Virus record (IMG/VR): IMGVR_UViG_3300007775_000001
Coordinates: 1-64,000 of that record
Length of the DNA: 64,000 nt
From: a virus
Direction: 5' to 3' (one strand)
The position numbers and the translations under genes are program-made. The stretch's first letter is position 1; every line of letters begins with the position of its first letter. Shown here piece after piece: positions 5,501 to 59,033 of this stretch. The notes beneath the pieces were generated by a model, which was not told where the DNA came from, searched no databases, and was given only the letters and a program-made list of their open reading frames with translations.

Positions 5501-6052
5501 ATCACTTCGCTCAGCAATGCAGCAACAATCGAAGTGTCTGACGGTGGCCGAAGAGTCCAGATTGTAACTTTGACCATCGCTGCTTCTGGATCGGTACAGG
5601 TGACCGGTGGTGCAGGAAACGCGACACTTAATTTCTCTACCAGTAAGTTTGTTGGGGTAGATGGCTATCAGTTTCTCACTGGCCTTGCTCAGATCGCTCA
5701 GTGGGTCGTTGACGGGCGTCCTGACGATCAGGAGACATATCCCGGACTCCGCGCAGTTGGCAATCAGGTCGAGGTGCTTGAGCCAGCGTTGAGGAAGATC
5801 ACGATTGAGATCGATGTGACCACTCAGCCAAGCGTTTCTCTGACTTCTGTGATCAACGATGTGAAGTCGGCTGTTTCGGCATACATCAACGGTTTGGGGG
5901 TTGGCGAAGACGTGATTCTGTCCGATATAGTTGTAGCGGTGAAAGGTGTTGCCGGGGTGTTTGATGCGGTGATGCTTACACCGGTTGTGAATACTCCGGT
6001 TTCCGATAACGAGCTTGCGCGGATCAGCGAAGCGGATATTGCTGTCGTGTAG
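2516..6052 (+). CDS. Baseplate J/gp47-like wedge protein with large repeat-containing insertion
   Basis: N-terminal KTFPQILGDM..GSVVRTMLEA..GLDLDARGEEFGITR; GRDLEGDQEYRDRI; C-terminal VSAYINGLGVGEDVILSDIV are baseplate-J hallmarks. Confidence 0.85.
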   Translation: MAEFTPKTFPQILGDMIATVVANSPLTDASVGSVVRTMLEAAAQEDDEQYFQMLNILRSFSLDTTTGLDLDARGEEFGITRQQSQQATTVVTLGDSSFSKVQTGVFSGAVGPLSGETAVKADSSTGFPVSGSIIIGRGTPNSETVGYSSITAGLGFVTFNLSAGLSFDHGTDESIILSQGGNRVFTAGLVVAVPASDLSEKIDFSLDSTVTLLDGEVSLTGVAVTAVVGGSGVNVSIGAISTFDSPPFSTATVTNPNRVTNGRDLEGDQEYRDRIKDRIQSLSRGTGLSIISGVAGLVSSEENKRVVSASIVEPTTVPDIVKLYIDDGTGFIPSSSGVGFEEVVAVATGGEQFLGIDNVPVMKASLLSTLSEPFDFSSGGETLTVDVGNDTETVTFATSDFVDPANATAVEVQVKFNKASLFEARVASNGTVRIFARRNKEDDIIVTGGTANAILGFPQSSRRYTTHLYKSNRNAISLLSKDGATARIESGNAETFDLSGTTFNLCVVIDGKTDTPIQIPLFTSDFVDPANATAEEVVAAIGARAPGLSSEASLVGTRVKLFSRLLLSVDSKIQVVENFDQVFNEESSVDTDRTTELSALAGTANLFAVNSDYVHVGHDTVKFNSVYVQMSTPSSDDIGLLVEYWNGSTWVPVGVFDGTAGFTQNGIITIPPLFDWMKTAGPGTSAYWLRLQRTTVTVTTPPVAQLVRVCSANAVLAFPSGVQSGADADYTVNRFVGQIELLTSLVAGEKLVLGSDDTRAFVTTVNSDTYNFTGGGQGLNVTIDGVAQSYTFLVGDFVDPANGTAAEVAAALNAGLTGVSAEVVDTNYVKLTIKSHDSTGTIIVTGGTANVILGFPTTQVISLQSHYAFAESGSAENYSFTVGDLVIVVIDGEDVDLFSVPCTHASVLTGATDTTHVIDSNLSSYFPNATDLVGFELEMTSGAQSGERKTITAYDPGTGTVTLNAALTGTPLAADTYEILPVTAEDVVFFWNNKKITSLSNAATIEVSDGGRRVQIVTLTIAASGSVQVTGGAGNATLNFSTSKFVGVDGYQFLTGLAQIAQWVVDGRPDDQETYPGLRAVGNQVEVLEPALRKITIEIDVTTQPSVSLTSVINDVKSAVSAYINGLGVGEDVILSDIVVAVKGVAGVFDAVMLTPVVNTPVSDNELARISEADIAVV

Positions 6053-6070
6053 AGTTTCTACGTAGAAACT
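6053..6070. repeat. Dispersed palindrome copy 1 (AGTTTCTACGTAGAAACT)
   Basis: 18-bp perfect palindrome immediately after the baseplate J stop codon. Confidence 0.95.
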
Positions 6071-7199: not shown

Positions 7200-8801
7200 A
7201 TGCAGAGAAAGCAGCGTTTCGTTGCAGATCAGAGATGGGATTTGTCTCAATATGACTCTATGATGGGTTTCATAGAGGAATCTTTCAGGTCTTTGAATCA
7301 GTATTTTGTTTCTTCTGATTCAAAGGTTCTTGCTGGATGGGAAATTGAGACTATTTCTGGATTGAACATTCGTGTGAAAAAAGATCAGGTTTCTGTATTG
7401 GTTCTTTCTGATCGGTCTGGTCATGAGGAATTTCATTGGAGATTGGCGACAGAGAGTGATTTGTTTTTGTCTCTTGGAAACAATGATGTGCATTATGTTG
7501 AAGTTCAGTTTGTAGAATCAACTGAAGATTCTTCTACTGTTGCATTTTGGGACTCTCAGACTAATTCTGAATTTTCTCAGGCATCTGATCAAACTGTTGT
7601 TCAGATGCCTGTTCTTGTATCCAATACATCTGGATTTACCGGTGATCCTGATAAAGTTCCTCTTGCGGTAGTAACAACTTCTGGTGGTGTTGTCACGGGA
7701 ATAGTTGATTCAAGACCGTTGATATTTGCGTTGGATTCAGATTTTGATTTTGGTATTCCTCGTAGCGATAGAGCGATCAAAACTGTCAAGAATATGTTTG
7801 ATGCTCTTGCTACGTCTTTGAAAGAATTGAAGAATACAACAAATTGGTATGACGACGGAGGTTCTTTCCAAATAACGTCTGAGAAGGGCGCGGCTAACGG
7901 CTACGCGAGTCTGGACGGCAGCGGGGATGTTCCTGATGCGCAGATTCCGGTCGGTATCCAGCGCAAGAGCGAGCGCGACATCATCAATGGGTATCCCACG
8001 CTGATTGACAATGGTGGTTCACCGGCAATTGCGGCGTCGCAACTCTCGCTGGCGGAACTACTTAGCCGAAAGGACGCGGCCAGCGGTTATGCGGGGTTGG
8101 ATTCGTTGTCTCGCCTTGTCCGCTCGGCCTTCACCATTGGGCCGTTCTCTCTGCCGGACAGTGCTTCGCCCGCTGCGGATTTGGTGGCCGCAGGCGTACC
8201 GGATGACTGCTATTACATTGCGATTGTCGCTGACAAATTGGGGTATCCGGAGGCGGTCTACGGCACAGGCGGAATCCGATCATACGGCATGGTGACAGGC
8301 CGATATGCCACGAGCAATGCCTATTCCTATTGTTATCAAGAATTTCGCAGCGTTTCGGCATCCCTCGGAACCTACCGTCGATATTCTACCTCGGCTGGGG
8401 CCGCGTGGTCAGCTTGGGTTCAGACTTCTGACACCATCGACATCTCACGGATCGTCTACGGCGGCAACGCCAGCGCCACCACCAATCTCGCGAACGCAGG
8501 CGATTTGAATGCGGTTACGAAGTCCGGGTTCTACAAGGCTGACAATCCGTCGGTGACGGAAACCCCCGCAGCCGGGGGATGGGATATCATCCACGTCGAG
8601 CACGAGCCACTCAACGGCTACGGCTTCCAGATCGCCGTGCAGGTCGCAATGACGGATATCTGGATTCGGCAAAAGACGGCTGGCTCCTGGGGCTCCTGGG
8701 TATCATATGCCAAGGCGGCGGCAAACGGCATTGCGTCGCTGGACGGCTCATCCATATTGTTTCAGAGCACCTACGGGGCGCATTGTGGCAGGCGGCGGTA
8801 G
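7200..8801 (+). CDS. Tail fibre protein
   Basis: Repeated KGAANGYASLDG-type units; knob-like segment DLNAVTKSGFY...QIAV..IWIRQK..GSWGSW; position after baseplate genes. Confidence 0.75.
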   Translation: MQRKQRFVADQRWDLSQYDSMMGFIEESFRSLNQYFVSSDSKVLAGWEIETISGLNIRVKKDQVSVLVLSDRSGHEEFHWRLATESDLFLSLGNNDVHYVEVQFVESTEDSSTVAFWDSQTNSEFSQASDQTVVQMPVLVSNTSGFTGDPDKVPLAVVTTSGGVVTGIVDSRPLIFALDSDFDFGIPRSDRAIKTVKNMFDALATSLKELKNTTNWYDDGGSFQITSEKGAANGYASLDGSGDVPDAQIPVGIQRKSERDIINGYPTLIDNGGSPAIAASQLSLAELLSRKDAASGYAGLDSLSRLVRSAFTIGPFSLPDSASPAADLVAAGVPDDCYYIAIVADKLGYPEAVYGTGGIRSYGMVTGRYATSNAYSYCYQEFRSVSASLGTYRRYSTSAGAAWSAWVQTSDTIDISRIVYGGNASATTNLANAGDLNAVTKSGFYKADNPSVTETPAAGGWDIIHVEHEPLNGYGFQIAVQVAMTDIWIRQKTAGSWGSWVSYAKAAANGIASLDGSSILFQSTYGAHCGRRR

Positions 8802-8802
8802 C

Positions 8803-9666
8803 ATGAATGCTAGCTTGATCGACGCCGGGACTTTCCCGCAGGCGAGAATCGGTGCCGGGGCCGTTGGGCAGTCGCAGCTAAAGACCGGCTTACAGCAGAG
8901 TACGTTGTTGATGACGCCGGGCACTACATCCATCACGGTCACGAGCGGGCCTTACGCGCTCAATGCGTTCTGGTCGGCGTCTGCTCCCGATTCACTGTGG
9001 CTGCGGCGCGTCGCCGGTATCACGGCGGGATACGCGTCGCAGGAGGGCGTTACCAACATTGACTCGTCTAACCACACCTATTACTTCCAGATTCGTTACA
9101 TCACGGCGAGTCCGCCCTACGACCTAGGGGACGGGGAAATCCCTGTGTTTGTATTCCTACTGCTGGACGCGAGCGGCAATGTGGTGGGGGTGGACGTGGC
9201 GCCAGACCCACCGTGGGCCAACAACGGCCCCACGCCGATCAGCCCGGCTCACCCACGCGTCAGGACTGCTGGTGACGGCAAGCGATATCTGCGTGTGCCG
9301 CTTGTACCGGCGCCGGGCTTGGGGGCGAGTGCCAGCGAGCGGGAAGCCTTCGCTGAATGTCTGTGCCAGCCATTTGATGACAATTCGGCATGGCAGGAAA
9401 TAGAGATTGATCAGAAGATCAAGAATCAGGACATGTCGCTGGTGCCGCACCCCTGGCAAGGAAACGATCTGGGCGCGCGCACGGTGGTGCTACTAGACCC
9501 GGTGAGTGCCATGGCTCATCGGATGGCGCGGCTGCACGATCTGCAAGAGCCCGACCAGCGGCCCAGAGACTTGCTGCTGGACGGTGCGCTGCGCGTGGAC
9601 AACACGTCGCTGCGGCGGGCTGGCCCGCCGGGTGTGCTTATCTGCGGGGCGACATGGGCGTCCTGA
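8803..9666 (+). CDS. Tail fibre-associated protein (possibly the distal part of the fibre, frameshifted)
   Basis: ATG 1 nt after the fibre stop; frame open from 8707; IGAGAVGQSQLKT and ITASPPYDLGDGEIP segments resemble fibre proteins. Confidence 0.55.
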   Translation: MNASLIDAGTFPQARIGAGAVGQSQLKTGLQQSTLLMTPGTTSITVTSGPYALNAFWSASAPDSLWLRRVAGITAGYASQEGVTNIDSSNHTYYFQIRYITASPPYDLGDGEIPVFVFLLLDASGNVVGVDVAPDPPWANNGPTPISPAHPRVRTAGDGKRYLRVPLVPAPGLGASASEREAFAECLCQPFDDNSAWQEIEIDQKIKNQDMSLVPHPWQGNDLGARTVVLLDPVSAMAHRMARLHDLQEPDQRPRDLLLDGALRVDNTSLRRAGPPGVLICGATWAS

Positions 9667-12456: not shown

Positions 12457-12478
12457 GTTTCTACGTAGAAACTCACAT
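12451..12478. repeat. Dispersed palindrome copy 2, extended to 28 bp
   Basis: ATGTGAGTTTCTACGTAGAAACTCACAT; contains the stop codons of both convergent genes. Confidence 0.95.
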
Positions 12479-16146: not shown

Positions 16147-17183
16147 TGGATGTGTTCTTCGAAGACGATCCGCACGAGACATTTGTCTCGTCACAGGAAC
16201 GGTATCCAAACTTTTCGCTCGAAGAGTACCTGAAAGAACTGGCGGTTCCGTTCAAGGTACATGCTTCGGACGATCACGAGGAGCATGCAATATGCTGTCC
16301 TGAGTGCGTCAATCGTGGTGAAGAACGTCCTGATATCAAGTATAGGTTGTGGATCAACCACGAGAAGGGGTCGTTCACGTGCTACAACTGCGACTGGAGT
16401 GGGACGCTCGTATCCTTGGTGCGTTCACTGTCTCAGGTGACGGTTGAGAAAGCAATCAAGATTCTGAGTGGTAAAAGTCTTGACCCTATGGAACACATGA
16501 ATCTGAAGCTCGTGATGGAGGAGCAGGAAGATGTGAGCTTCGGTGAAGACGATGTTCTGAAGCCCGTAGACCTTCCTTACGGGTTCGATCCGATCACGGG
16601 GCCACATCCATACCTGGAGAAGCGTGGTATCCCATGGGAATACGCGAGAGATCATGAATGGGGTCACTGTTCTGTCGGGTTCTACGCGAATCGGATCATC
16701 GTGCCTACCTTCATGAACAGTGTGCTCGTGTACTGGCAGGCGCGTGCTACCTGGGAAGATAACAGCAAGGACTTCAGGAAGGTGCTGAATCCCACACAGG
16801 CAAGCTCGAAACCAATTCTGTACCAGTATGATGATGCCAAGGAATTCTCACACATCATTATTGTCGAGGGGTTTACAGATGCAGTGAAGGTCGGGCCGGA
16901 TGCGGTAGCCACAAATGGCAAGCGGTTGCATGGAAAGCAGGTCGGGTGGCTTTCGAAGACAAAGGCTCAGACTGTCACGCTGATGTGGGATGAAGATGCC
17001 TGGAAGACTCGTAAGCGCAAGAACGGAGGGATCGTGCAGTCTCCTATCATGAGTGCTGCTGATCTGTTGAAGGTGCGTTTCCATGTCCGTTTGGCACGGA
17101 TGCCAGACGCGAACGATGCTGGATCATACCCCTACAAAAGTCCTGCTCTCCGTAAGATCATCGAGGATGCCACTCCAGCTTGA
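16143..17183 (+). CDS. DNA primase (Zn finger plus TOPRIM)
   Basis: CPEC...CYNC zinc finger; YLEKRGI; RIIVP; IIVEGFTDA; MWDED. Confidence 0.85.
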   Translation: MMDVFFEDDPHETFVSSQERYPNFSLEEYLKELAVPFKVHASDDHEEHAICCPECVNRGEERPDIKYRLWINHEKGSFTCYNCDWSGTLVSLVRSLSQVTVEKAIKILSGKSLDPMEHMNLKLVMEEQEDVSFGEDDVLKPVDLPYGFDPITGPHPYLEKRGIPWEYARDHEWGHCSVGFYANRIIVPTFMNSVLVYWQARATWEDNSKDFRKVLNPTQASSKPILYQYDDAKEFSHIIIVEGFTDAVKVGPDAVATNGKRLHGKQVGWLSKTKAQTVTLMWDEDAWKTRKRKNGGIVQSPIMSAADLLKVRFHVRLARMPDANDAGSYPYKSPALRKIIEDATPA

Positions 17184-17208: not shown

Positions 17209-17243
17209 CATACCGCAACTACTCATTCTGAACGGAGAGAGCT

Positions 17244-17663: not shown

Positions 17664-17704
17664 GGTTTTGAAGGATCAGATTGAACCTGAACGGAGTGGC
17701 GACC

Positions 17705-18592: not shown

Positions 18593-18631
18593 TAGGAGGG
18601 GCCTTGGCCCCTCCTCTGTTCAGAGCTACCC

Positions 18632-18660: not shown

Positions 18661-18697
18661 ATAGGTGAAGGGTGGTTCTGAACAGAGGAGATTGACC

Positions 18698-19546
18698 ATG
18701 AAGAAGATTCGAGTGTTCTACAGCGACAGTCAGAGTGTGGATGATCGGACGCTCTTCAGTCCTTCGGTGCGCAAGCCACGGCTTGTGATGGTGGACTGGT
18801 ACAACAAGCAAGCGTTTCCGGTCAAGGTACTGAACTTCGATCCTGTGACCGCAAAAGACCTTCATCGCGTCCACGAGAAGCGGTATGTGAACGGCGTATT
18901 GAAGACCAAGCGTCAGAACGGGTTCGGGTCGCGTTCAAAAGCGATTGCTCAAAGTCTGCTCTGGACTTCGGGTTCGATGGTGGCTGCGACACTGGATGCC
19001 ATGAAGACTGGTGGTGTGGCTGTCAGTCCCACGAGCGGTTTCCATCATGCCGGATACTTTGGTGGTGGTGGCTTCTGCACGTTCAACGGGCTCATGCTGG
19101 CTGCTCTTAAGGCGTTCGATGCCGGTGCCAAGAAGGTTGCGATCCTGGACTTGGATCAGCACTACGGCAACGGGACAGACAGTATCATCAGAGAGCTTCG
19201 GCTGAAAGACAAGGTGGCCCACTGGACTCTGGGTAGCTCTGATGTTAACACGAGAAATGCCCACTTGTTCATTGACTGGCTCCCTGGTAAGATCGAGCAG
19301 TGCTTCGCTGGAGCGGACGTGCTGATCTACCAAGCCGGTGCGGATTGTCACAAGGATGATCCGCTGGGTGGCCGGTTCACTACTGAGCAGATGTTTCTTC
19401 GAGATCGCGCCGTCTTCCAGACGGCGAAACGGCTGGGTCTTCCCGTGGCGTGGAATCTCGCGGGTGGATACCAAGACCCTGTGGAAAAAGTTGTGGCAAT
19501 CCATCGCAATACGATGATGGAAGCTATCGACACGTATCTCAGCTAG
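18698..19546 (+). CDS. Zn-dependent histone deacetylase family protein
   Basis: GFHHAG, GGGFCTFN, ILDLDQHYGNGT, YQAGADCHKDDPLG and AGGY motifs intact. Confidence 0.92.
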   Translation: MKKIRVFYSDSQSVDDRTLFSPSVRKPRLVMVDWYNKQAFPVKVLNFDPVTAKDLHRVHEKRYVNGVLKTKRQNGFGSRSKAIAQSLLWTSGSMVAATLDAMKTGGVAVSPTSGFHHAGYFGGGGFCTFNGLMLAALKAFDAGAKKVAILDLDQHYGNGTDSIIRELRLKDKVAHWTLGSSDVNTRNAHLFIDWLPGKIEQCFAGADVLIYQAGADCHKDDPLGGRFTTEQMFLRDRAVFQTAKRLGLPVAWNLAGGYQDPVEKVVAIHRNTMMEAIDTYLS

Positions 19547-19557
19547 TGGAGATCGGC

Positions 19558-19827
19558 ATGTCGTTCAATGTGACAGAAGAGACGCTTGAGATCGATGCTG
19601 ACAACATGAAACCAACCAGTATTCGGTTTGACGCGGATCAGAAGAAGTACCTGAAGGCCCTGATGATTGCTTTCCGCAAGAAGACGGGCGAACGGGCAAC
19701 GCTGGGATGGCTGATCAAGAAGCTCATTGAGACAGCCGTCCCAGCGTTCCTAGAAGAGTACGGGATCACTTCGGAAGAGATCAGCGAGATTGAGAAGACG
19801 ATCAAGGTGGTCAAAAAAGAGGTTTGA
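19558..19827 (+). CDS. Small putative DNA-binding protein (ribbon-helix-helix-like)
   Basis: KPTSIRFDADQKKYLKAL..TLGWLIKKLIE strand-helix-helix pattern. Confidence 0.4.
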   Translation: MSFNVTEETLEIDADNMKPTSIRFDADQKKYLKALMIAFRKKTGERATLGWLIKKLIETAVPAFLEEYGITSEEISEIEKTIKVVKKEV

Positions 19828-19852
19828 CTTTCTGTATGACATGTAGTACAGT
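19824..19852 (+). promoter_or_regulatory. Sigma70-type early promoter
   Basis: TTGACT-17 bp-TACAGT with TGTAG. Confidence 0.8.
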
Positions 19853-19894
19853 TTGATTGTGGTTGAACGAGTAACCTGAACGGAGAGATTGACC

Positions 19895-20794
19895 ATGACA
19901 GAATTCAACGATCTGACCATCGGTGATCATACCCTGGCCGCTCGTGTGCCTGTGGTGGATTCGGAAGATGCCTTTGTTCCTGCCGTGAACAAGGCGTACT
20001 GTTGGCCCGACACGATCAGTGATATCACTCAGGACATCAACGAGAACAAGAAGGTGCTCCTGACGGGTCACACGGGAACCGGCAAGACCAGCCTCTTCAT
20101 GCAGTTGGCCGCTCGCATCGGGCAACCGGTGATGCGCTCCAACATGAACGGACAAATCACGGTCGGTGATTTTGTCGGTATGTGGACAGTTCAAGGTGGG
20201 CAGACGGTGTGGACGGACGGTGTCCTTCCCTACTGTATGCGTCACGGGTTCTGGCTCGTGCTGGATGAACTGGACTTCGCGGAACCTGCGATTCTGGCTG
20301 TGCTCAACAGCGTTCTGGAACCAAAGGGTTCCCTGATGTTGAAAGAGAAGGGTCATGAGGTTGTGCGACCACACAAAGACTTCCGGCTCTTCGCTACTGC
20401 GAACACGGTGGGCTGTATGCAGGAATACCGGTCGCTGTACCAGGGAACAGGAATCATCAACGAGGCGTTCCTGGATCGGTGGCGTGTGTATATGATCAAT
20501 TATCTGAAGCCGGAAGATGAGGCCAAGGTTATCGCGGAGTCGGTGCCTCGCATGCGTGAGAACATCACTCAGGTCATGGTGCGCGTCATGTCGCTCGTGC
20601 GCGAAGCTTTCAAGAAGGATGAAGTCCGCTGCACGTTCAGCACGCGACGTGGGCTGGATTGGGCGGAACTGATGGTACGTCACCGTCATCCACTGAAGGC
20701 CGCCGAATCGAGTATCTTCAGCAAGGTTTCCCCGGAAGATGCCGAAACGATCAAGGGGATCATCAAGCGGGTCATGAACCTGCGGGATGAGTAG
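19895..20794 (+). CDS. MoxR/CobS-like AAA+ ATPase
   Basis: GHTGTGKT, LVLDELD, FRLFATANT, EAFLDRW, FSTRR. Confidence 0.9.
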   Translation: MTEFNDLTIGDHTLAARVPVVDSEDAFVPAVNKAYCWPDTISDITQDINENKKVLLTGHTGTGKTSLFMQLAARIGQPVMRSNMNGQITVGDFVGMWTVQGGQTVWTDGVLPYCMRHGFWLVLDELDFAEPAILAVLNSVLEPKGSLMLKEKGHEVVRPHKDFRLFATANTVGCMQEYRSLYQGTGIINEAFLDRWRVYMINYLKPEDEAKVIAESVPRMRENITQVMVRVMSLVREAFKKDEVRCTFSTRRGLDWAELMVRHRHPLKAAESSIFSKVSPEDAETIKGIIKRVMNLRDE

Positions 20795-21167: not shown

Positions 21168-21410
21168 ATGGCCGAAGATATGGACACCGTTCTTGGGATG
21201 GCATTCGGGCAGAAAAAGCCCGCTAAACCGGAACGCAAGGGGTTCACGCGGCGGCTGGATGCACCTGATCGTGATCTGTCGTGGGCGCACCAAGTCGAGC
21301 TAGTTCAGGACGAGGAAAAGCTTGACACCAATGCCAAGAAGGCAGAATTCGACCGGCAGATCGATGAGGCCACTGCACCTGATTTCATGAGTGACCTACA
21401 AGACATTTGA
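21168..21410 (+). CDS. Hypothetical protein
   Basis: 80 aa; ends DFMSDLQDI. Confidence 0.55.
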   Translation: MAEDMDTVLGMAFGQKKPAKPERKGFTRRLDAPDRDLSWAHQVELVQDEEKLDTNAKKAEFDRQIDEATAPDFMSDLQDI

Positions 21411-21435
21411 CATTCGAGGGAGACTGTAGTACAGT
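21407..21435 (+). promoter_or_regulatory. Sigma70-type early promoter
   Basis: TTGACA-17 bp-TACAGT with TGTAG. Confidence 0.8.
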
Positions 21436-21471: not shown

Positions 21472-23325
21472 ATGAGCGGTTTTCATTTCCTCAGTGCGAT
21501 GCAGCGCATCGGTCGGACGATTGCCCGCCAATACGGGATCAACGTGATCTACGAGGGCAACAGTCCCGGCACCGATGGCAAGACCATCGTGCTTCCCGAT
21601 GTCCAAAACCTGACCGATGAACTTCGGCATGATCTTGATGGGTATCTTGATCATGAGGTCGGACATTGCCGACACACTGATTTCAACGTTCTGCGGAGCG
21701 TTGACAATCGGTTCCAATCGGAACTGCTGAGTGCGCTGGAAGGCGTGCGGGTGGATCGTGAGATGATTCGCGATTACCCTGGCAGTCAGTTCCACATCAA
21801 CGATTTGAACGACAAGCTTCGCGCCAAAGCTGCTGAGAAGTGGGTTGGCACTCCCACTGCGATTCGGCTTCTGCATGGTGTTCGTGACGGGATGCGTGGT
21901 CAACCCATTGTGAGTGACCACGACACAGCCCGTTATCTCGATGCCTTGGGTGATGAGATCAGCAAGCTCAACACCTACACTTCCACTGGTCAAATGCGAG
22001 ACGCTACCGCTCGCATCATGAAGATCATCCTGGAAGAACGAGAGCGCGAGCAAGAAGAGCAGCAACAGCAGCAACAGCAGCAACAGCAAGCCGGTGGTGC
22101 TGGTGGTGGTGATTCTCAATCCAAGGGTGGTGGTCAGAAGCAAGAAGATGGCGACCAGGATCAAGAAGATGGCGACCAGGATGAAGACCAAGATCGGAAG
22201 GGTGACGGTGATGGTGGTGGGGACAGCGAAGACCATGACCAGGAGGGTGAAGGGGACGGTGACCAGGATCAGCAAGCCGGTGGTGGTGCTGATGAGAAAT
22301 TCGATGACATGATCACTGAAAACAGCGGTGCCGACAATTCCGAATTCGACAACCATGCGACCAACCTTCAGCAATTGATGAACGGTAACATGGCTCCCGA
22401 AATTGAGGGTGAACCGGAAATACAAGGTGGTCGGCCCTGGCATGACGGTTTCAGTGATGCCAAGCACATTCCCCTGACTACCCGGTTCGATCAGATTCAT
22501 GACGTGTCGGGTGGTGGTGATCCTGTCCGGTACAACGTTCTCCGGAACAAGGTCAAGGGGATCATGAGTCCGATTCGCCGCGAGATGGAACGTGTTCTGA
22601 AGGTGAAAGAGAACGCGCGGTGGCGGATGGATCGTGAGCGTGGTCACATCAACAACCGGTCGTTGTCTCAATTGGTTGCGAGCCCTGGCTTCCGGACTCC
22701 CTTCAAGGAATTCCAGAAGACTGAGACAACCAACGTGGCGATTCAACTGCTCGTTGACCTGTCGGGTTCCATGGCTGGCTCTAAACTTCAGACGGCGAAA
22801 GAGGCTGCGACAGCCATGGCCGAAGTTCTTCGCTCCCTGGATATCCCGTTCGAGGTGACCGGGTTCCATAGCGAGGGTGACTACGACATGCAAAAGGTGG
22901 CGCGCGAAGTTGGCGATATCAGTCGCTTCAATCGGACTCATGAACGGCTCGATCATTGGGTATACAAGTCGTTCGGGGATTCGCGGATGGATGGTATCAC
23001 GCGGATGGAGTCCGGTGGCAACAACACCGATGGTGAGTCGGTGCGATGGGCAGCGGCCCGTCTGGCAGAGCAGAAACAGAAACGGAAGATCATGATTGTC
23101 TTCAGTGACGGTATGCCTGCCTGCCATGGCAACATGAGCATGCTCAACGGTGACTTGGTGCGCGCGGTCAAAGAGATCGACCGCTCCGGGATTGAAGTGG
23201 TTGGAGTGGGTATCGAGCACAATGGAGTGAGTCGGTTCTACCCTAACAACATTGCGATCAACAACGTGGAAGACCTGACCGGTGGTGTGCTGCGGAAACT
23301 CTCTTCGATGTTGACAGAGGCATAG
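21472..23325 (+). CDS. CobT-like protein: HExxH domain, acidic Q/D/G linker, C-terminal VWA
   Basis: DHEVGH; poly-Q/acidic linker; MIDAS DLSGSM; IVFSDGMP. Confidence 0.88.
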   Translation: MSGFHFLSAMQRIGRTIARQYGINVIYEGNSPGTDGKTIVLPDVQNLTDELRHDLDGYLDHEVGHCRHTDFNVLRSVDNRFQSELLSALEGVRVDREMIRDYPGSQFHINDLNDKLRAKAAEKWVGTPTAIRLLHGVRDGMRGQPIVSDHDTARYLDALGDEISKLNTYTSTGQMRDATARIMKIILEEREREQEEQQQQQQQQQQAGGAGGGDSQSKGGGQKQEDGDQDQEDGDQDEDQDRKGDGDGGGDSEDHDQEGEGDGDQDQQAGGGADEKFDDMITENSGADNSEFDNHATNLQQLMNGNMAPEIEGEPEIQGGRPWHDGFSDAKHIPLTTRFDQIHDVSGGGDPVRYNVLRNKVKGIMSPIRREMERVLKVKENARWRMDRERGHINNRSLSQLVASPGFRTPFKEFQKTETTNVAIQLLVDLSGSMAGSKLQTAKEAATAMAEVLRSLDIPFEVTGFHSEGDYDMQKVAREVGDISRFNRTHERLDHWVYKSFGDSRMDGITRMESGGNNTDGESVRWAAARLAEQKQKRKIMIVFSDGMPACHGNMSMLNGDLVRAVKEIDRSGIEVVGVGIEHNGVSRFYPNNIAINNVEDLTGGVLRKLSSMLTEA

Positions 23326-23326
23326 C

Positions 23327-23611
23327 ATGCTGAATGCGCGGCGGCTTCTGGAGTATTGCGAGGAGCATGACATCTATGTTCCGAAGGGTGCGACTCGCGC
23401 CTATCTGGAAGCCGCTGTTGCCAGACATGCATTGCATGGTAAGAAAAGCGATCAAAAGGGCTGCTTTGGGTTCTGGCAGCGCGAGTTGATGGATTGTATG
23501 ACTTGTGACTACGAGTCCCCGTGCTTTGAGGTTTCGATGGGTACAGAGCGCGACAAATACATGAGGGGAGTCGATAGTCAGGAGAACCCCAAGATTCGAT
23601 TCGCGAAGTAG
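23327..23611 (+). CDS. Hypothetical Cys-rich protein
   Basis: 94 aa; CFG...CMTC...C. Confidence 0.55.
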   Translation: MLNARRLLEYCEEHDIYVPKGATRAYLEAAVARHALHGKKSDQKGCFGFWQRELMDCMTCDYESPCFEVSMGTERDKYMRGVDSQENPKIRFAK

Positions 23612-23684
23612 AGGCCGCGCCCAATGTCCGGTACTGTTCTCTCTCCGTTCAGGTTGCCGGACAAAGGGTGCGGTTTCTCATTTT
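23611..23684 (+). ncRNA. 3'-UTR hairpin with loop antisense to early-gene leaders (candidate sRNA/terminator)
   Basis: Stems GAGGCCGCGCCC/GGGTGCGGTTTC and TGTCCGGTA/TGCCGGACA; apex TCTCTCCGTTCAGGTT is the reverse complement of AACCTGAACGGAGAGA. Confidence 0.5.
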
Positions 23685-23799
23685 GAGATGTGAAAATGAC
23701 AGTCAAGATTTCATTGACGCAAGGCAAGGTCGCCAAAGAGTATCATGGTGACCTTGCAAGAGTAAGATAGGTATTGACACTCTCTGTAAGGTGTGAGAC

Positions 23800-24130
23800 G
23801 ATGTCACTCCCTCAAGGCCGGTAAGCTTTGAGAACAGCCAACCAAGAGCCCGTCTGTAACCTCTAATGAAGAGGGTGGTGACGGGGGGTATGCGGTGCAA
23901 TTCCGTATGGTCACATGGTTGACCTGAGAGCGGCTGGAGCGCAGTCCCTAGCTCGAATAGCTCAGACAGGGGTGCCGTTAGGGAACGGCAACGTGGGGTT
24001 GACAGCCCGTAGTCGCGGAACCCATCCGTCCAGACTAGACTGATAAACTGGAAGAGAAAAACCAGTCCCTATGGTCTGCGTCGGTGAAGCTCAGGTGAGC
24101 CCATGCCCGTTGGGGGTAGGGGGGAACTGT
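23800..24130 (+). ncRNA. Candidate structured non-coding RNA, family unknown
   Basis: No credible ORF; nested helices and a T-loop-like GGTGCAATTCC hairpin. Confidence 0.4.
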
Positions 24131-24146
24131 TTTCCAGAGCTTCCTG

Positions 24147-24410
24147 ATGGAAGACTTAACTACTAAACAACTGTTACTAGAGGTATGCTTAGAAATGAAC
24201 ACTCAGAAAGTAAATGACGAGAAGGAAGAGGGAGTGGATGGAAATGGATGGAGTCCAACACTGGAGCTTCGGTTTTTGAAGAAGAAGGTGAAGCTTGTTG
24301 AAGGTGGTGATGCGTTCGACAGGTTTATTCTCCAGCAGAAGTGGATCGACATGAACAACATCTCGAAGAAAGAATGGCGTGATGTTCCCTCTGTCAAAGA
24401 AGGGTCATGA
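24147..24410 (+). CDS. Hypothetical protein
   Basis: ORF with ILQQKW..EWRDVP motif; start uncertain. Confidence 0.5.
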   Translation: MEDLTTKQLLLEVCLEMNTQKVNDEKEEGVDGNGWSPTLELRFLKKKVKLVEGGDAFDRFILQQKWIDMNNISKKEWRDVPSVKEGS

Positions 24411-26031: not shown

Positions 26032-26047
26032 GTTTCTACGTAGAAAC
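26032..26047. repeat. Dispersed palindrome copy 3
   Basis: GTTTCTACGTAGAAAC upstream of the 26078 module. Confidence 0.95.
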
Positions 26048-30765: not shown

Positions 30766-30779
30766 TTTCTACGTAGAAA
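30766..30779. repeat. Dispersed palindrome copy 4 (14-bp core)
   Basis: TTTCTACGTAGAAA after the stop of small ORF 30562..30765. Confidence 0.9.
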
Positions 30780-32238: not shown

Positions 32239-32267
32239 TTGACATGCCAAGGATGATGTAGTAGAGT
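32239..32267 (+). promoter_or_regulatory. Sigma70-type promoter of the same class
   Basis: TTGACA-17 bp-TAGAGT with TGTAG. Confidence 0.65.
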
Positions 32268-39026: not shown

Positions 39027-42000
39027 ATGTTTGTGCATCTGCACAACCATACCGAATTCAGCATTGCAGACGGCTTGTTCGCCCCGAAAAAATGGGTCGA
39101 AGCTATTGCAGATGCCGGGTTCAAGGGACATGCTCTGACAGACCACGGGAACGTGGGTGGTCATCTTCCGTTCTACAAGGCCATGAAGGACAAGAAACTC
39201 ACGCCGCTCCTTGGGTGTGAGTTTTATTTTGTGGATGACCCGTTAGAGAAGATCGTCGAGAACAGGCGGTCGAGTCATCTGATCCTTTTGGCGCAGAACT
39301 ACGATGGATACCGAAATCTGCTGAAGCTGCAAGCCTTGTCTTACGAGGAGGGATTTTATTTTCGGCCACGAATCGGGCTCAAGTGGTTGAAGGAATACCA
39401 CGAGGGATTGGTTTGCTTGACGGCATGCCTGGGTGGTGTGCTAAGCACCGAAGTCTGGCGCGAATTTGCTGCGAATGACGCGGGGACGATGTACAAGGGT
39501 CTTGAAGATCGCTTCAGGCTCTTGTACTCCATTTTCAGTGACGATCTGTACGTTGAGTTTCAGGGACATGAACTTGACGAGCAGGTTCGGATTCAAACAG
39601 AGTTCTACAATCGGTTGCGCAACCTGCCTGGGTTCCAGCACGTCATTACAAACGACTGTCACTACATCCTGCCTGAGCATGCACCAATTCAGACCATGCT
39701 CAAGGACTCTGCTTACAAGAAGCAGAACACCGAAGCTGGTCAGAGCTATACGACTACCGATAGTCTATGGCTGAAGCCGCCGCTGGAAGTTCTGAAATCG
39801 TTCCTCAGAAAGCATACCTACATGCCGAAGGAATTTGTTCTTGATGGTATGCGACGTACAGAAGAGGTGTTCGACAAGTGCTCGAAATTGGAATTGCCTT
39901 CTGGACAGCGATATCTTCCACGATACAGGACAGAGATCGATTCGAAGGAGCACTTCAAGGCTCTCACCGTTGGTCGGTTGCGAGAGTTCTTGAAGTCGGA
40001 CTTGCTCAGGGCTCCCCGACAAGACTACATTGACCGGTTCGCCAAGGAGTACAAGACGATCAGCAAGTACGATCTGGAAGATTACTTCCTGATCGTATGG
40101 GATATCGTCAGATTCGCTCAGGAACGCGGAATCTACACGGGTTTGGGCCGGGGGAGTGCAGCGGGTAGCCTGATCAGTTATCTCCTTGGGATCGTGCGTA
40201 TAGACCCACTAGAGCATGGTCTTTTCTTCGAGCGGTTCCTGAACGAGAATCGTTGTGAGAATGGGGAGCTTCCAGACATCGATCTGGATTTCGAATCGAG
40301 TCGTCGCGAGGAAGTGAAGGAGTATATCTACCAGACCTACGGTCATGACAAGGTCTGTGAGATCGGAACCTACGGTCGGATGAAGCTGAAGACCGGGATC
40401 ATCGATTTTGGGACGATGCTTGGTGTGAGCGACCGGTCAAGTTTGCTCAAGATTACTACTGCCCTGGAGCTTGATCGGGCACACGCTGACAATCTTGATG
40501 AGGCTATGGCGGTTGATCCGGCTCTTCAGAATCTCGTGGAAAAGAATCCTCAGTTTGGATTTTCGATTCGGGAGTTGTTGGGGCAGATCAAAAGCCAAGG
40601 CGTTCACCCAGCCGGGGTGCTCATCGCCAATCAACCCATTGATGAAATTGCGGCTGTCAAGACACAGCGCGCCAAAGATAGTGGCGAGAAGGAGCGGATT
40701 AGGGTCACTCAGTCGGAAGACAAGTACCTCATCGCTCAGGGTCTTGTGAAGATGGATGTACTTGGGATCAAGGAGTACGATCAGCTTCGCTACGTGGTTG
40801 AGAACGCTCCAGACAAGCCGTTCACAATGGAGAACTATGTTGAACGGATCATGGATGACGAGCGCGACTACCAAGCTGCCAAAGCTCGTGGCGTGGATGT
40901 GGAGCGCAAGTATCCCATCCAGACAAAGGTCTGGGAGATGTTCTCCTCCGGTCAGACGGACGGTGTGTTTCAGTTTGCATCCGACGGAATGCGAGAGCTA
41001 CTGAGATTGATGGAAGCCAATACACTGAACGATCTGATTGCCGCGAATGCTCTGTATCGACCTGGATGCCTTGAGAACGGATGGCATACCCTGTACTGCA
41101 AGCGCAAAAGCGGTGAAGAAGCAGTGGCATACGTGCATCCAGACTTGAAGCAAGCCTTGGGGTCTACCTATGGTGTGATCGTGTTCCAAGAGCAGTTCAT
41201 GGAAGCGATTCACAAGCTTGGTAGCATCCCTTTGGTTGATGCCGACACAATCCGGAGTGCGTTGGGCAAGAAGGATAAAGACAAGCTCGCAAAATTCAAA
41301 GGTCAGTTTGTGAGTGGCGCGGAGTCCAAGATTGGGAAGAGTGAGGCGGAAGAGGTGTGGGATCAGATCGAGAAGGCGTCTGGGTATACCTTCAACCGGT
41401 CTCACTCCGCCGCCTATTCAACGCTGGCGTACCTGTCACAATATATGAAGGTGAGGTATCCAGGACTGTACTGGGCGGCTCAGCTTCATTGGGATACGGC
41501 CAAGAACAAGCATGACGAGGTACTTCTTGATAGGCGTGCTGCACAGGACATGGGGATCGAGTTCAAGCTTCCGTCCATCAACACATCGAAGTCCAGTTTC
41601 TACGTAGAAACTGCGAGCGGTAAGATCGTCTGGTCGCTGATTGGTGTGAAGGGGGTGGCGGAAAATACCGCCAAGGAGATTGAGGCCCATCAACCGTTCT
41701 CGTCATTTGAAGACTTTCAGAAACGAGTCAACAAGTCCAAGGTACGCTGGAATCACATGGTTTCGCTGGCGTACGCGGGACTCTTTGATGAGTTCGGTGA
41801 CCGGCGAGAGATCGTCAAGCTTATTCATGAGCAGAAGAAGAAGCCCGTCCCTAGCTTGTCTGAACAGGACATGATCTTTGCGTACTATGAGCAGATGGGT
41901 TTCTTCGAACGCAAGCTGAAGAGGGTGTTCAGCGGGTTTGATTCGGAGACGGTAACAGAACGTGATCTGGTGTCTCATCTGAATGGCGCGGATATGTCTG

Positions 42001-54549: not shown

Positions 54550-54780
54550 ATGGCAGAACAGGTTGATCGTCCCACCCATTACGGGGGAACAGATTGCATC
54601 GAAGCAATGGAGAAGATGCTGTCCAGAGAAGAGTTCATTGGTTTCCTTCGAGGAACCATCTTCCGATATCAATGGAGATGGCGTCAGAAGAACGGCGAGC
54701 AGGATTTGGAAAAGGCTCGTTGGTACGATAGGTATCTCAAGGAGTACATGCAGAGATGCTCTGAACCAGTTTCTACGTAG
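54550..54780 (+). CDS. DUF3310 family protein
   Basis: VDRPTHY..DCIEAM..GFLRG..Y.WR..KNG.QDLEKARWY. Confidence 0.88.
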   Translation: MAEQVDRPTHYGGTDCIEAMEKMLSREEFIGFLRGTIFRYQWRWRQKNGEQDLEKARWYDRYLKEYMQRCSEPVST

Positions 54781-54784
54781 AAAC
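54769..54784. repeat. Dispersed palindrome copy 6
   Basis: GTTTCTACGTAGAAAC containing the DUF3310 stop codon. Confidence 0.95.
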
Positions 54785-55712: not shown

Positions 55713-55802
55713 GACTCCTCGTTTTCTTGTTGACTTCCGCTGTACTCCCTGTCATACTGTAGTCGTGGGAAGGAAGTGAGAACTCTGAATGGAGAGAGGG
55801 TC

Positions 55803-56075
55803 ATGAACAGCGCACTGCATGAAGAAAATCACGAGGAGTTTCGAGCGAAACTCCAGAGTGAGCGTGACCGGCTCCTTCCTATCTTCAACCGGGTCGCGAA
55901 TCCGGATGACTGGAAGGCTCCGATCAGCGCATGGGTGGATGCTGCCGAAGTGGACAACGTCGTGCAAGCAATCGGGTACTTCACGGCAACGGTGGCGAAG
56001 GTCGCTTGGGGTCTGAAACCGGGCAAGGCATACGTGACTTCGGTCGGCTACAGGGTTGGCCCGGCTGGGCCATAA
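55803..56075 (+). CDS. Small early hypothetical protein
   Basis: DWKAPI..AIGYFT; preceded by leader CTGAATGGAGAGAG. Confidence 0.65.
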   Translation: MNSALHEENHEEFRAKLQSERDRLLPIFNRVANPDDWKAPISAWVDAAEVDNVVQAIGYFTATVAKVAWGLKPGKAYVTSVGYRVGPAGP

Positions 56076-56785: not shown

Positions 56786-57064
56786 GTAACTGTGGCTGAG
56801 AGAGAAACCCTGAATAGAGGAAAGAACCCATGGAACATTATTCACATCTCATGAGTGGATGCGCTGCGAAGTTTCCTTTCTGTTACGGTGACTGTGGAGA
56901 CGATGTGAAGAAAAACGAGAAGACCGGTCGGTGGTATATCACGATGGGTCATCCGGGCTTCAATAGCACGGCCAACAACGGTAACGGGTATTCGACCGAA
57001 GCCAAGGCTCGCAGTGAACTGAAACGCTACGCACGAGCGTAGCGTTCTGGTCGAGAGAGAGATC

Positions 57065-59017: not shown

Positions 59018-59033
59018 TTTCTACGTAGAAACT
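59016..59033. repeat. Dispersed palindrome copy 7
   Basis: AGTTTCTACGTAGAAACT filling the gap between stop and next ATG. Confidence 0.95.

Follow-up and report, generated by a model that had tools for sequence, protein, structure and literature searches.

A hairpin at the end of a phage cobS-cobT operon with a loop that co-varies with the operon's own leader

The cobS-cobT operon and the hairpin at its end

The window analysed here is a stretch of 64,000 nucleotides, the first 64 kb of a single 114,950-base (~115-kb) contig of an uncultured virus (IMG/VR record IMGVR_UViG_3300007775_000001), which we refer to as the window phage. The sequencing runs that cover more than half of this stretch are soil metagenomes only, and no RNA run containing the locus was listed. 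Among GenBank phages, we found no DNA match to the window phage, no homologue of the small ORF that closes the operon described below, and no CobT with more than 32.5% identity; thus, no cultured relative is known. Nearly all genes lie on the + strand, as indicated both by strand skew and by the ORFs. Those around the feature of interest are arranged in the order DnaB-like helicase and primase, WGR-domain gene, DUF6744 gene, histone-deacetylase-family gene, cobS, two small ORFs, cobT, and a 94-amino acid (aa) ORF. The product of cobS, called MoxR in an earlier sequence-only reading, is an AAA_5/CbbQ ATPase of 299 aa (phage 'CobS'; start codon at 19895), and cobT encodes a CobT/VWA protein (start codon at 21472). 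From cobS to the hairpin that follows the last ORF, the operon extends over 3.8 kb with a polycistronic layout; the genes in between overlap or abut, leaving no room for a terminator, and none was seen there in a terminator scan. The features at the end of the operon, in window coordinates, are the following.

23327-23611, + strand: last gene of the operon, encoding a 94-aa protein with an HeH/SAP-like N-terminus, four invariant cysteines, and a basic tail (alignment A2)
23610-23678, + strand: two-tier hairpin, with an outer stem (23610-23622 paired with 23666-23678) that includes three G.U pairs and an inner stem (23625-23636 paired with 23650-23663)
23637-23655, + strand: anti-leader at the apex, TTCTCTCTCCGTTCAGGTT, with an exact 16-mer core at 23640-23655
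23676-23686, + strand: U-rich tract TTTCTCATTTT after the outer stem, the probable intrinsic termination point and end of the module

The 94-aa protein contains an HeH/SAP-like N-terminal helix pair and the invariant cysteines C46, C57, C60, and C66, and judging from these features, it looks like a small nucleic-acid-binding protein; the Pfam SAP/HeH matches are weak, and the AlphaFold model is of low confidence (pLDDT 67).

The outer stem of the hairpin begins one base after the T of the stop codon of this ORF and is followed by the U-rich tract. The sequence-only reading had described a two-tier stem directly after the last gene of the cluster, with G.U pairs that favour the + strand, and this description is borne out by folding: the predicted energy of 23610-23678 is -41.3 kcal/mol on the + strand (z -7.4) versus -30.9 kcal/mol on the - strand, which is weaker by about 10 kcal/mol because of the three G.U pairs in the outer stem. 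The 13-bp G+C-rich outer stem followed by UUUCUCAUUUU resembles an intrinsic terminator, but it encloses an insert of 43 nt, and a simple scan did not call a terminator here because the loop exceeds 8 nt. The hairpin is located between the stop codon and a probable intrinsic terminator, with which it is fused in the window phage; a place before a terminator that sRNA and mRNA share is that of 3'-UTR-derived sRNAs. Rfam returned no match for the element at the gathering score in the window, and none at E<=1 in 23300-24200.

A metagenome contig that is 90-99% identical to this stretch is collinear with it up to 23687 and continues with a different sequence. In the window, the hairpin is followed by about 450 nt without a credible ORF (23688-24146); in the 90-99% identical contig, which comes from another soil sample, 250 unrelated bases replace 23688-24029. 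This swap places a mosaic joint exactly at the end of the hairpin module.

Leaders and promoters that match the loop

The apex of the hairpin is the exact reverse complement of AACCTGAACGGAGAGA, the cobS leader that includes the Shine-Dalgarno sequence (SD), a match for which no counterpart is expected in shuffled sequences. Ten to eleven nucleotides of the anti-leader (UCUCUCCGUU) are in the open apical loop. The 16-mer has a mean probability of being unpaired of 0.71, and opening it would cost 5.3 kcal/mol, compared with a duplex energy of about -30 kcal/mol. The sites that pair with the loop, together with the cobS promoter and a second, local anti-leader, are listed below.

17228-17241, + strand: leader of the WGR-domain gene, 14/14 match
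17684-17696, + strand: leader of the DUF6744 gene, 13/13 match
18611-18624, + strand: second anti-leader (local), CTCCTCTGTTCAGA, within the 3' region of the DUF6744 gene; exactly complementary (14/14) to the deacetylase gene's variant leader, 18677-18690
19824-19852, + strand: cobS promoter of the standard sigma-70 type, TTGACT-N-GTAGTACAGT cassette
19873-19888, + strand: cobS leader, 16/16 complementary to the loop
21451-21466, + strand: cobT leader with the same 16-mer, 16/16; own promoter at 21407-21435
55785-55798, + strand: leader of a distant gene (start at 55803); one G.U pair in a 14-nt match, or 18 nt with G.U pairs allowed
64506-64517 of the contig, outside the window: sixth leader, 12 nt, gene at 64524

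The 19-mer at 23637-23655 and the five leader matches reported in the sequence-only reading were all reproduced at the same coordinates. In a scan of the loop against every candidate start-codon leader on the 115-kb contig, pairing above the chance level (<=9 nt) was limited to these six, and the cobS leader was the loop's best + strand duplex partner on the contig. Outside this phage, the leader 16-mer had nine single matches in IMG/VR, no more than expected by chance under a rough estimate of the size of the collection.

Each of the genes that match the loop has its own promoter cassette, of the general form TTGACA-N14-GTAGTACAGT, located 15-30 nt upstream of the leader motif. There are 12 such cassettes on the + strand of the contig (that of cobS, those at 17180, 17635, 18632, and 21407, and seven more), and downstream of half of them (6/12) is a leader with at least 12 nt of pairing to the loop; two further cassettes, those of the deacetylase gene (start codon at 18698) and of a gene at 56830, precede weaker variants of the motif. 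Among relatives of the window phage, the leader motif is also found before start codons without a promoter (at 5990 in L011 and at 8785 in L014), and it is therefore an element of the mRNA rather than a part of the promoter. The deacetylase promoter lies between the two arms of the local complementarity, 18611-18624 and 18677-18690, and in L014, a comparable local anti-SD (8735-8745) immediately precedes the cobS leader. The window also contains two tRNA genes (Rfam RF00005; 32164-32237 and 32355-32426), one of them directly after a standard promoter cassette at 32239.

Relatives of the operon and covariation of loop and leader

In a protein search, contigs of 105-111 kb were found to encode CobT relatives with 37-46% identity, and searches for the locus with CobT and CobS alignments in IMG/VR and JGI metagenomes yielded about fifteen family members. 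Six relatives from different samples (L011, L012/L013, L014, L015, L092, and L177; CobT 33-43% identical) repeat the anatomy of the window phage, namely, cobS, cobT, usually a small ORF, and then the hairpin and a terminator. In these relatives, the terminator is a separate, canonical one, and the hairpin is located between it and the last stop codon, with the exception that, in L014, the 5' part of the hairpin is still inside the end of the small ORF. Homologues of the 94-aa ORF precede the hairpin in L011, L013, L014, L015, and L092. In L177, there is no small ORF and the hairpin directly follows cobT, so that the hairpin is tied to the end of the operon rather than to the small ORF. The CobS proteins of L011 (8828), L013 (8917), L014 (8785), L015 (8940), and L092 (219) have an extra N-terminal region of ~50-70 aa with a zinc-finger-like CxxC...HxxxxH pattern that is absent from CobS of the window phage (19895). 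The loops and the leaders of the six relatives are as follows.

L011: loop TCCTTGTTAGCCC; own leader GGGCTAACAAGGA; motif copies (8-13-nt runs) before seven genes, including cobS and cobT
L012/L013: loop CTCTCCGTTTAGCC; GGCTAAACGGGGAG before cobS; 10 Watson-Crick pairs, 14 with one G.U
L014: loop CGTTTTAGCC; GGCTAAAACG, the 5' half of a leader common to four genes
L015: loop CCTTTGTTTTGGC; GCCAAAACAAAGG before cobS
L092: loop TTCCTACACAC; GTGTGTAGGAA at the 5' end predicted for the cobS and cobT leaders, with the SD ~10 nt further on
L177: 12-nt apical loop ATTAGCTCCTCC; GGAGGAGCTAA ahead of cobS and of one further gene

The stems of the seven hairpins have no sequence in common, and each is more stable than its shuffled versions (z -2.9 to -7.4). 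The anti-leaders are mostly unpaired, with predicted opening costs of 1.4-7.4 kcal/mol versus duplex energies of -20 to -30 kcal/mol. In L013 and L015, the cobS leader is the only motif-bearing leader within the 10-20 kb or so examined, and it is itself predicted to form a hairpin that holds the start codon in its stem and the motif in its loop, which suggests a loop-loop kiss and a contact that could remodel the leader.

We compared the seven loops with the seven cobS leaders in a cross-matrix. Each genome has a different leader, and the Watson-Crick runs between loop and own leader are 16, 13, 10, 10, 13, 11, and 12 nt (window phage, L011, L012/L013, L014, L015, L092, and L177, respectively), whereas the 42 foreign loop-leader pairs reach 5.4 nt on average and 9 nt at most. 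Only one of the 5040 possible arrangements of loops to leaders attains the observed diagonal sum, and for each genome, a shuffled loop does as well as the observed one in 0-8 of 5000 trials. The weakest case is L014, with a run of only 10 nt inside the end of the small ORF. When each locus was scanned for duplexes, the true leaders were at the top of the + strand list in the window phage, L011, and L013, and the cobS leader was among the top hits in L014 and L015. Covariation of the loop with the leaders in related phages, which the sequence-only reading had named as a check on its proposal, is thus present in seven genomes, and as far as sequence comparison goes, it supports RNA-RNA pairing.

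Inverted repeats bound by a single protein co-vary too, and the motif and its inverted copy might accordingly act as DNA, as an operator pair, as terminal inverted repeats of a mobile cobST cassette, or as recombination sites. Extension of the loop-leader runs through non-Watson-Crick pairs did not clearly favour RNA (gains of 32 via G.U, as in a + strand RNA, versus 24 via A.C, as on the opposite strand), and the stems outside the window phage, being perfect Watson-Crick helices that are equally stable on both strands, cannot tell the strands apart. However, there is exactly one inverted copy per locus, always as the loop on a separate stem where the operon ends, before a + strand terminator, and the direct copies are at translation starts, some of which lack a promoter. 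The module contains no transposase or recombinase, the metagenome contigs show no inversion joints, and the cassette is syntenic across the family. We consider a role at the DNA level very unlikely.

It is hardly credible that the inverted copy serves as a normal leader for a gene on the minus strand, or that it was left over by chance from a leader duplication. The standard leader does precede genuine minus-strand genes in L015 (7330), L070 (15768), and L092 (7593), and in the window, a minus-strand ORF of 128 aa with a TTG start (23624-23238) begins 15 nt past the motif. This ORF, however, is antisense to the small ORF that is conserved at the protein level; no standard promoter is present on the minus strand, and in L011, L013, and L177, no minus-strand ORF follows the motif. 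A relic is excluded by the conservation and covariation in seven genomes. The lack of minus-strand ORFs after the motif in these three relatives, together with the fold asymmetry in the window phage, the + strand terminators, and the gene orientation, argues for a + strand RNA.

Seven other family members (L016, L018, L040, L070, L091, L094, and L178) have no anti-leader after cobT, so that the element is dispensable or replaceable. In L094, one of these, a palindrome of the form AATGTACCAC-N3-GTGGTACATT overlaps two promoters (5971-5995 and 9583-9607), resembling a classical operator. Among distant cobS/cobT phages (24-30% identity), inverted leader matches were no more common than in the direct-repeat control (39 versus 49 loci).

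A probable head-to-tail interaction and its possible effects

The structure and the complementarity are established, as are the covariation of loop and leader and the conserved location in front of a terminator; we infer that both ends of the operon are on one transcript and pair in vivo, as we do the sign of the effect and whether it is exerted in cis or in trans. The hairpin loop probably base-pairs with the cobS leader of its own operon and thereby controls translation or stability of the messages. The hairpin would be a cis-encoded RNA element at the 3' untranslated end of the cobS-...-cobT-small-ORF transcript, and its loop would pair with the 5' leader of the operon's first gene, cobS, and, in the window phage, also with the messages that carry the same leader (those of cobT, the WGR-domain and DUF6744 genes, and two distant genes). 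Because the hairpin is made last, pairing could start only after the full operon has been transcribed, and it may occur within one molecule or between molecules. The likeliest effect would be negative feedback, via a blocked ribosome-binding region or a double-stranded RNase substrate.

The sequence-only reading went further, envisaging a regulon-wide small RNA. Part of this holds, in that the window phage, L011, and L014 have a multi-gene leader, which would extend the reach of the loop in these three genomes; the target common to all seven genomes, however, is the cobS leader alone, and the core of the system therefore looks like a head-to-tail (icaR-type) interaction of one operon's message. 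A stable small RNA processed from the 3' end of the mRNA and acting mainly in trans, as a timer that silences all early genes with the standard leader, is possible, although we lean against it. The hairpin has an extremely high predicted stability and, like 3'-UTR-derived sRNAs, a U-tract at its end; the same leader precedes four to seven genes in the window phage, L011, and L014, some of them far from the operon; and these leaders follow sigma-70-type promoters, so that the genes are plausibly early. Against such a timer, the restriction of the motif to the own cobS leader in L013 and L015 indicates that the regulon is not the conserved feature, and a scan found no internal promoter before the hairpin.

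The claim that the pairing overlaps the SD also stands in part. The predicted duplex covers the SD in the window phage, L011, L013, L015, and L177, which favours repression; in L014 and L092, it involves the part of the leader 5' of the SD, and simple occlusion of the ribosome-binding site thus cannot be the whole mechanism. The same pairing might instead have a positive effect, if the 3' loop clamped the 5' leader against RNases that depend on the 5' end or cleave the leader, or if it opened a closed leader hairpin. This seems somewhat unlikely to us, since a duplex over the SD in five genomes should compete with the 30S subunit. Nevertheless, the target is at or near the predicted 5' end of the transcript in L011, L014, and L092, the SD is left uncovered in the latter two, the cobS leader folds of L013 and L015 could be remodelled by a loop-loop contact, and there is a precedent in the hbs mRNA (see below). 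Given that pairing occurs, our estimate leans towards repression and leaves a smaller though considerable share to protection or activation.

Several known systems resemble the phage arrangement in part. In the icaR mRNA of Staphylococcus aureus, a 3'-UTR UCCCCUG motif pairs with the SD of the same mRNA, by which it has been proposed to keep translation from starting and to provide RNase III with a substrate (PMC3868564). The window phage, L011, L013, L015, and L177 likewise have a C/U-rich 3' motif complementary to the SD region of the operon's first gene; unlike that of icaR, however, the phage element closes a polycistronic operon (3.8 kb in the window phage), is displayed in the loop of a dedicated hairpin, and is backed by covariation rather than by experiment, and its complementarity in some genomes extends to several further messages or falls on leader bases outside the SD. 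Ends of one message that join in a duplex about as long (10-16 bp as predicted here) are known from the hbs mRNA of Bacillus subtilis, where a long-range contact of 14 bp that joins the 5'-UTR to the 3'-UTR has a positive effect, protecting against cleavage by RNase Y (PMC5737220). 3'-UTR-derived sRNAs, such as NarS, come from the 3' end of an mRNA, use its terminator, and target the ribosome-binding regions of other messages through a conserved seed (PMC7038943). The phage hairpin shares with them the place at the 3' end, the shared terminator, and the co-varying seed and targets, but the conserved target of its loop is the parent operon itself. The SAS/ESAS of Cluster K mycobacteriophages is a phage-private motif immediately before the start codons of a subset of genes (PMC3203893), and the leader motif described here is similarly private to each phage, precedes the start codons of a subset of genes, and is conserved by gene family; it differs from SAS in sequence, in phage group, and in having an antisense partner, none having been described for SAS. 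Finally, RegB and RegA of phage T4, a nuclease and a repressor protein, shut off early mRNAs through their ribosome-binding regions (reviewed in PMC3014915). Here too, the phage would shut off a class of its own early messages via these regions, with an RNA rather than a protein as the effector. In the titles and abstracts of the literature on phage sRNAs and on 3'-5' UTR pairing, we found no phage family with a private leader that co-varies with a 3' hairpin loop.

To our knowledge, little has been charted of how phages control their genes post-transcriptionally with RNAs of their own, with few known cases, all from cultured model phages. Annotation pipelines miss hairpins of this kind because these are read as ordinary terminators. 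The change of two distant sites together in seven lineages would be the strongest kind of evidence that sequences can offer, and the parts are small enough for a test in E. coli: a sigma-70 promoter, a ~45-nt leader, and a hairpin of 35-73 nt (~70 nt in the window phage). The finding also gives the phage CobS/CobT-like ATPase/VWA pair a regulatory logic; as far as we know, this pair is widespread and functionally unexplained. Speculatively, private leader 'addresses' read by anti-leader loops at message ends could be a general way for phages to meter translation, a generalization that we regard as rather unlikely. If it were true, translation of a message would go on only for as long as the message itself is being made, after which a loop-loop kiss would close it, fixing the protein yield per transcript independently of host RNases; joint changes in leader and loop would let each lineage keep its circuit private; and the local anti-leaders (18611-18624 in the window, 8735 in L014) would be forms of the same principle.

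Apart from the hairpin, the window contains seven exact copies of a 14-bp palindrome, TTTCTACGTAGAAA, where 0.01 would be expected (6055-6068, 12458-12471, 26033-26046, 30766-30779, 41597-41610, 54770-54783, and 59018-59031). At least five of the seven are at gene junctions, and L018 carries eight copies of a cognate palindrome, TTTCGACGTCGAAA. The palindrome of the window phage may be a protein operator or a short hairpin that punctuates operons.
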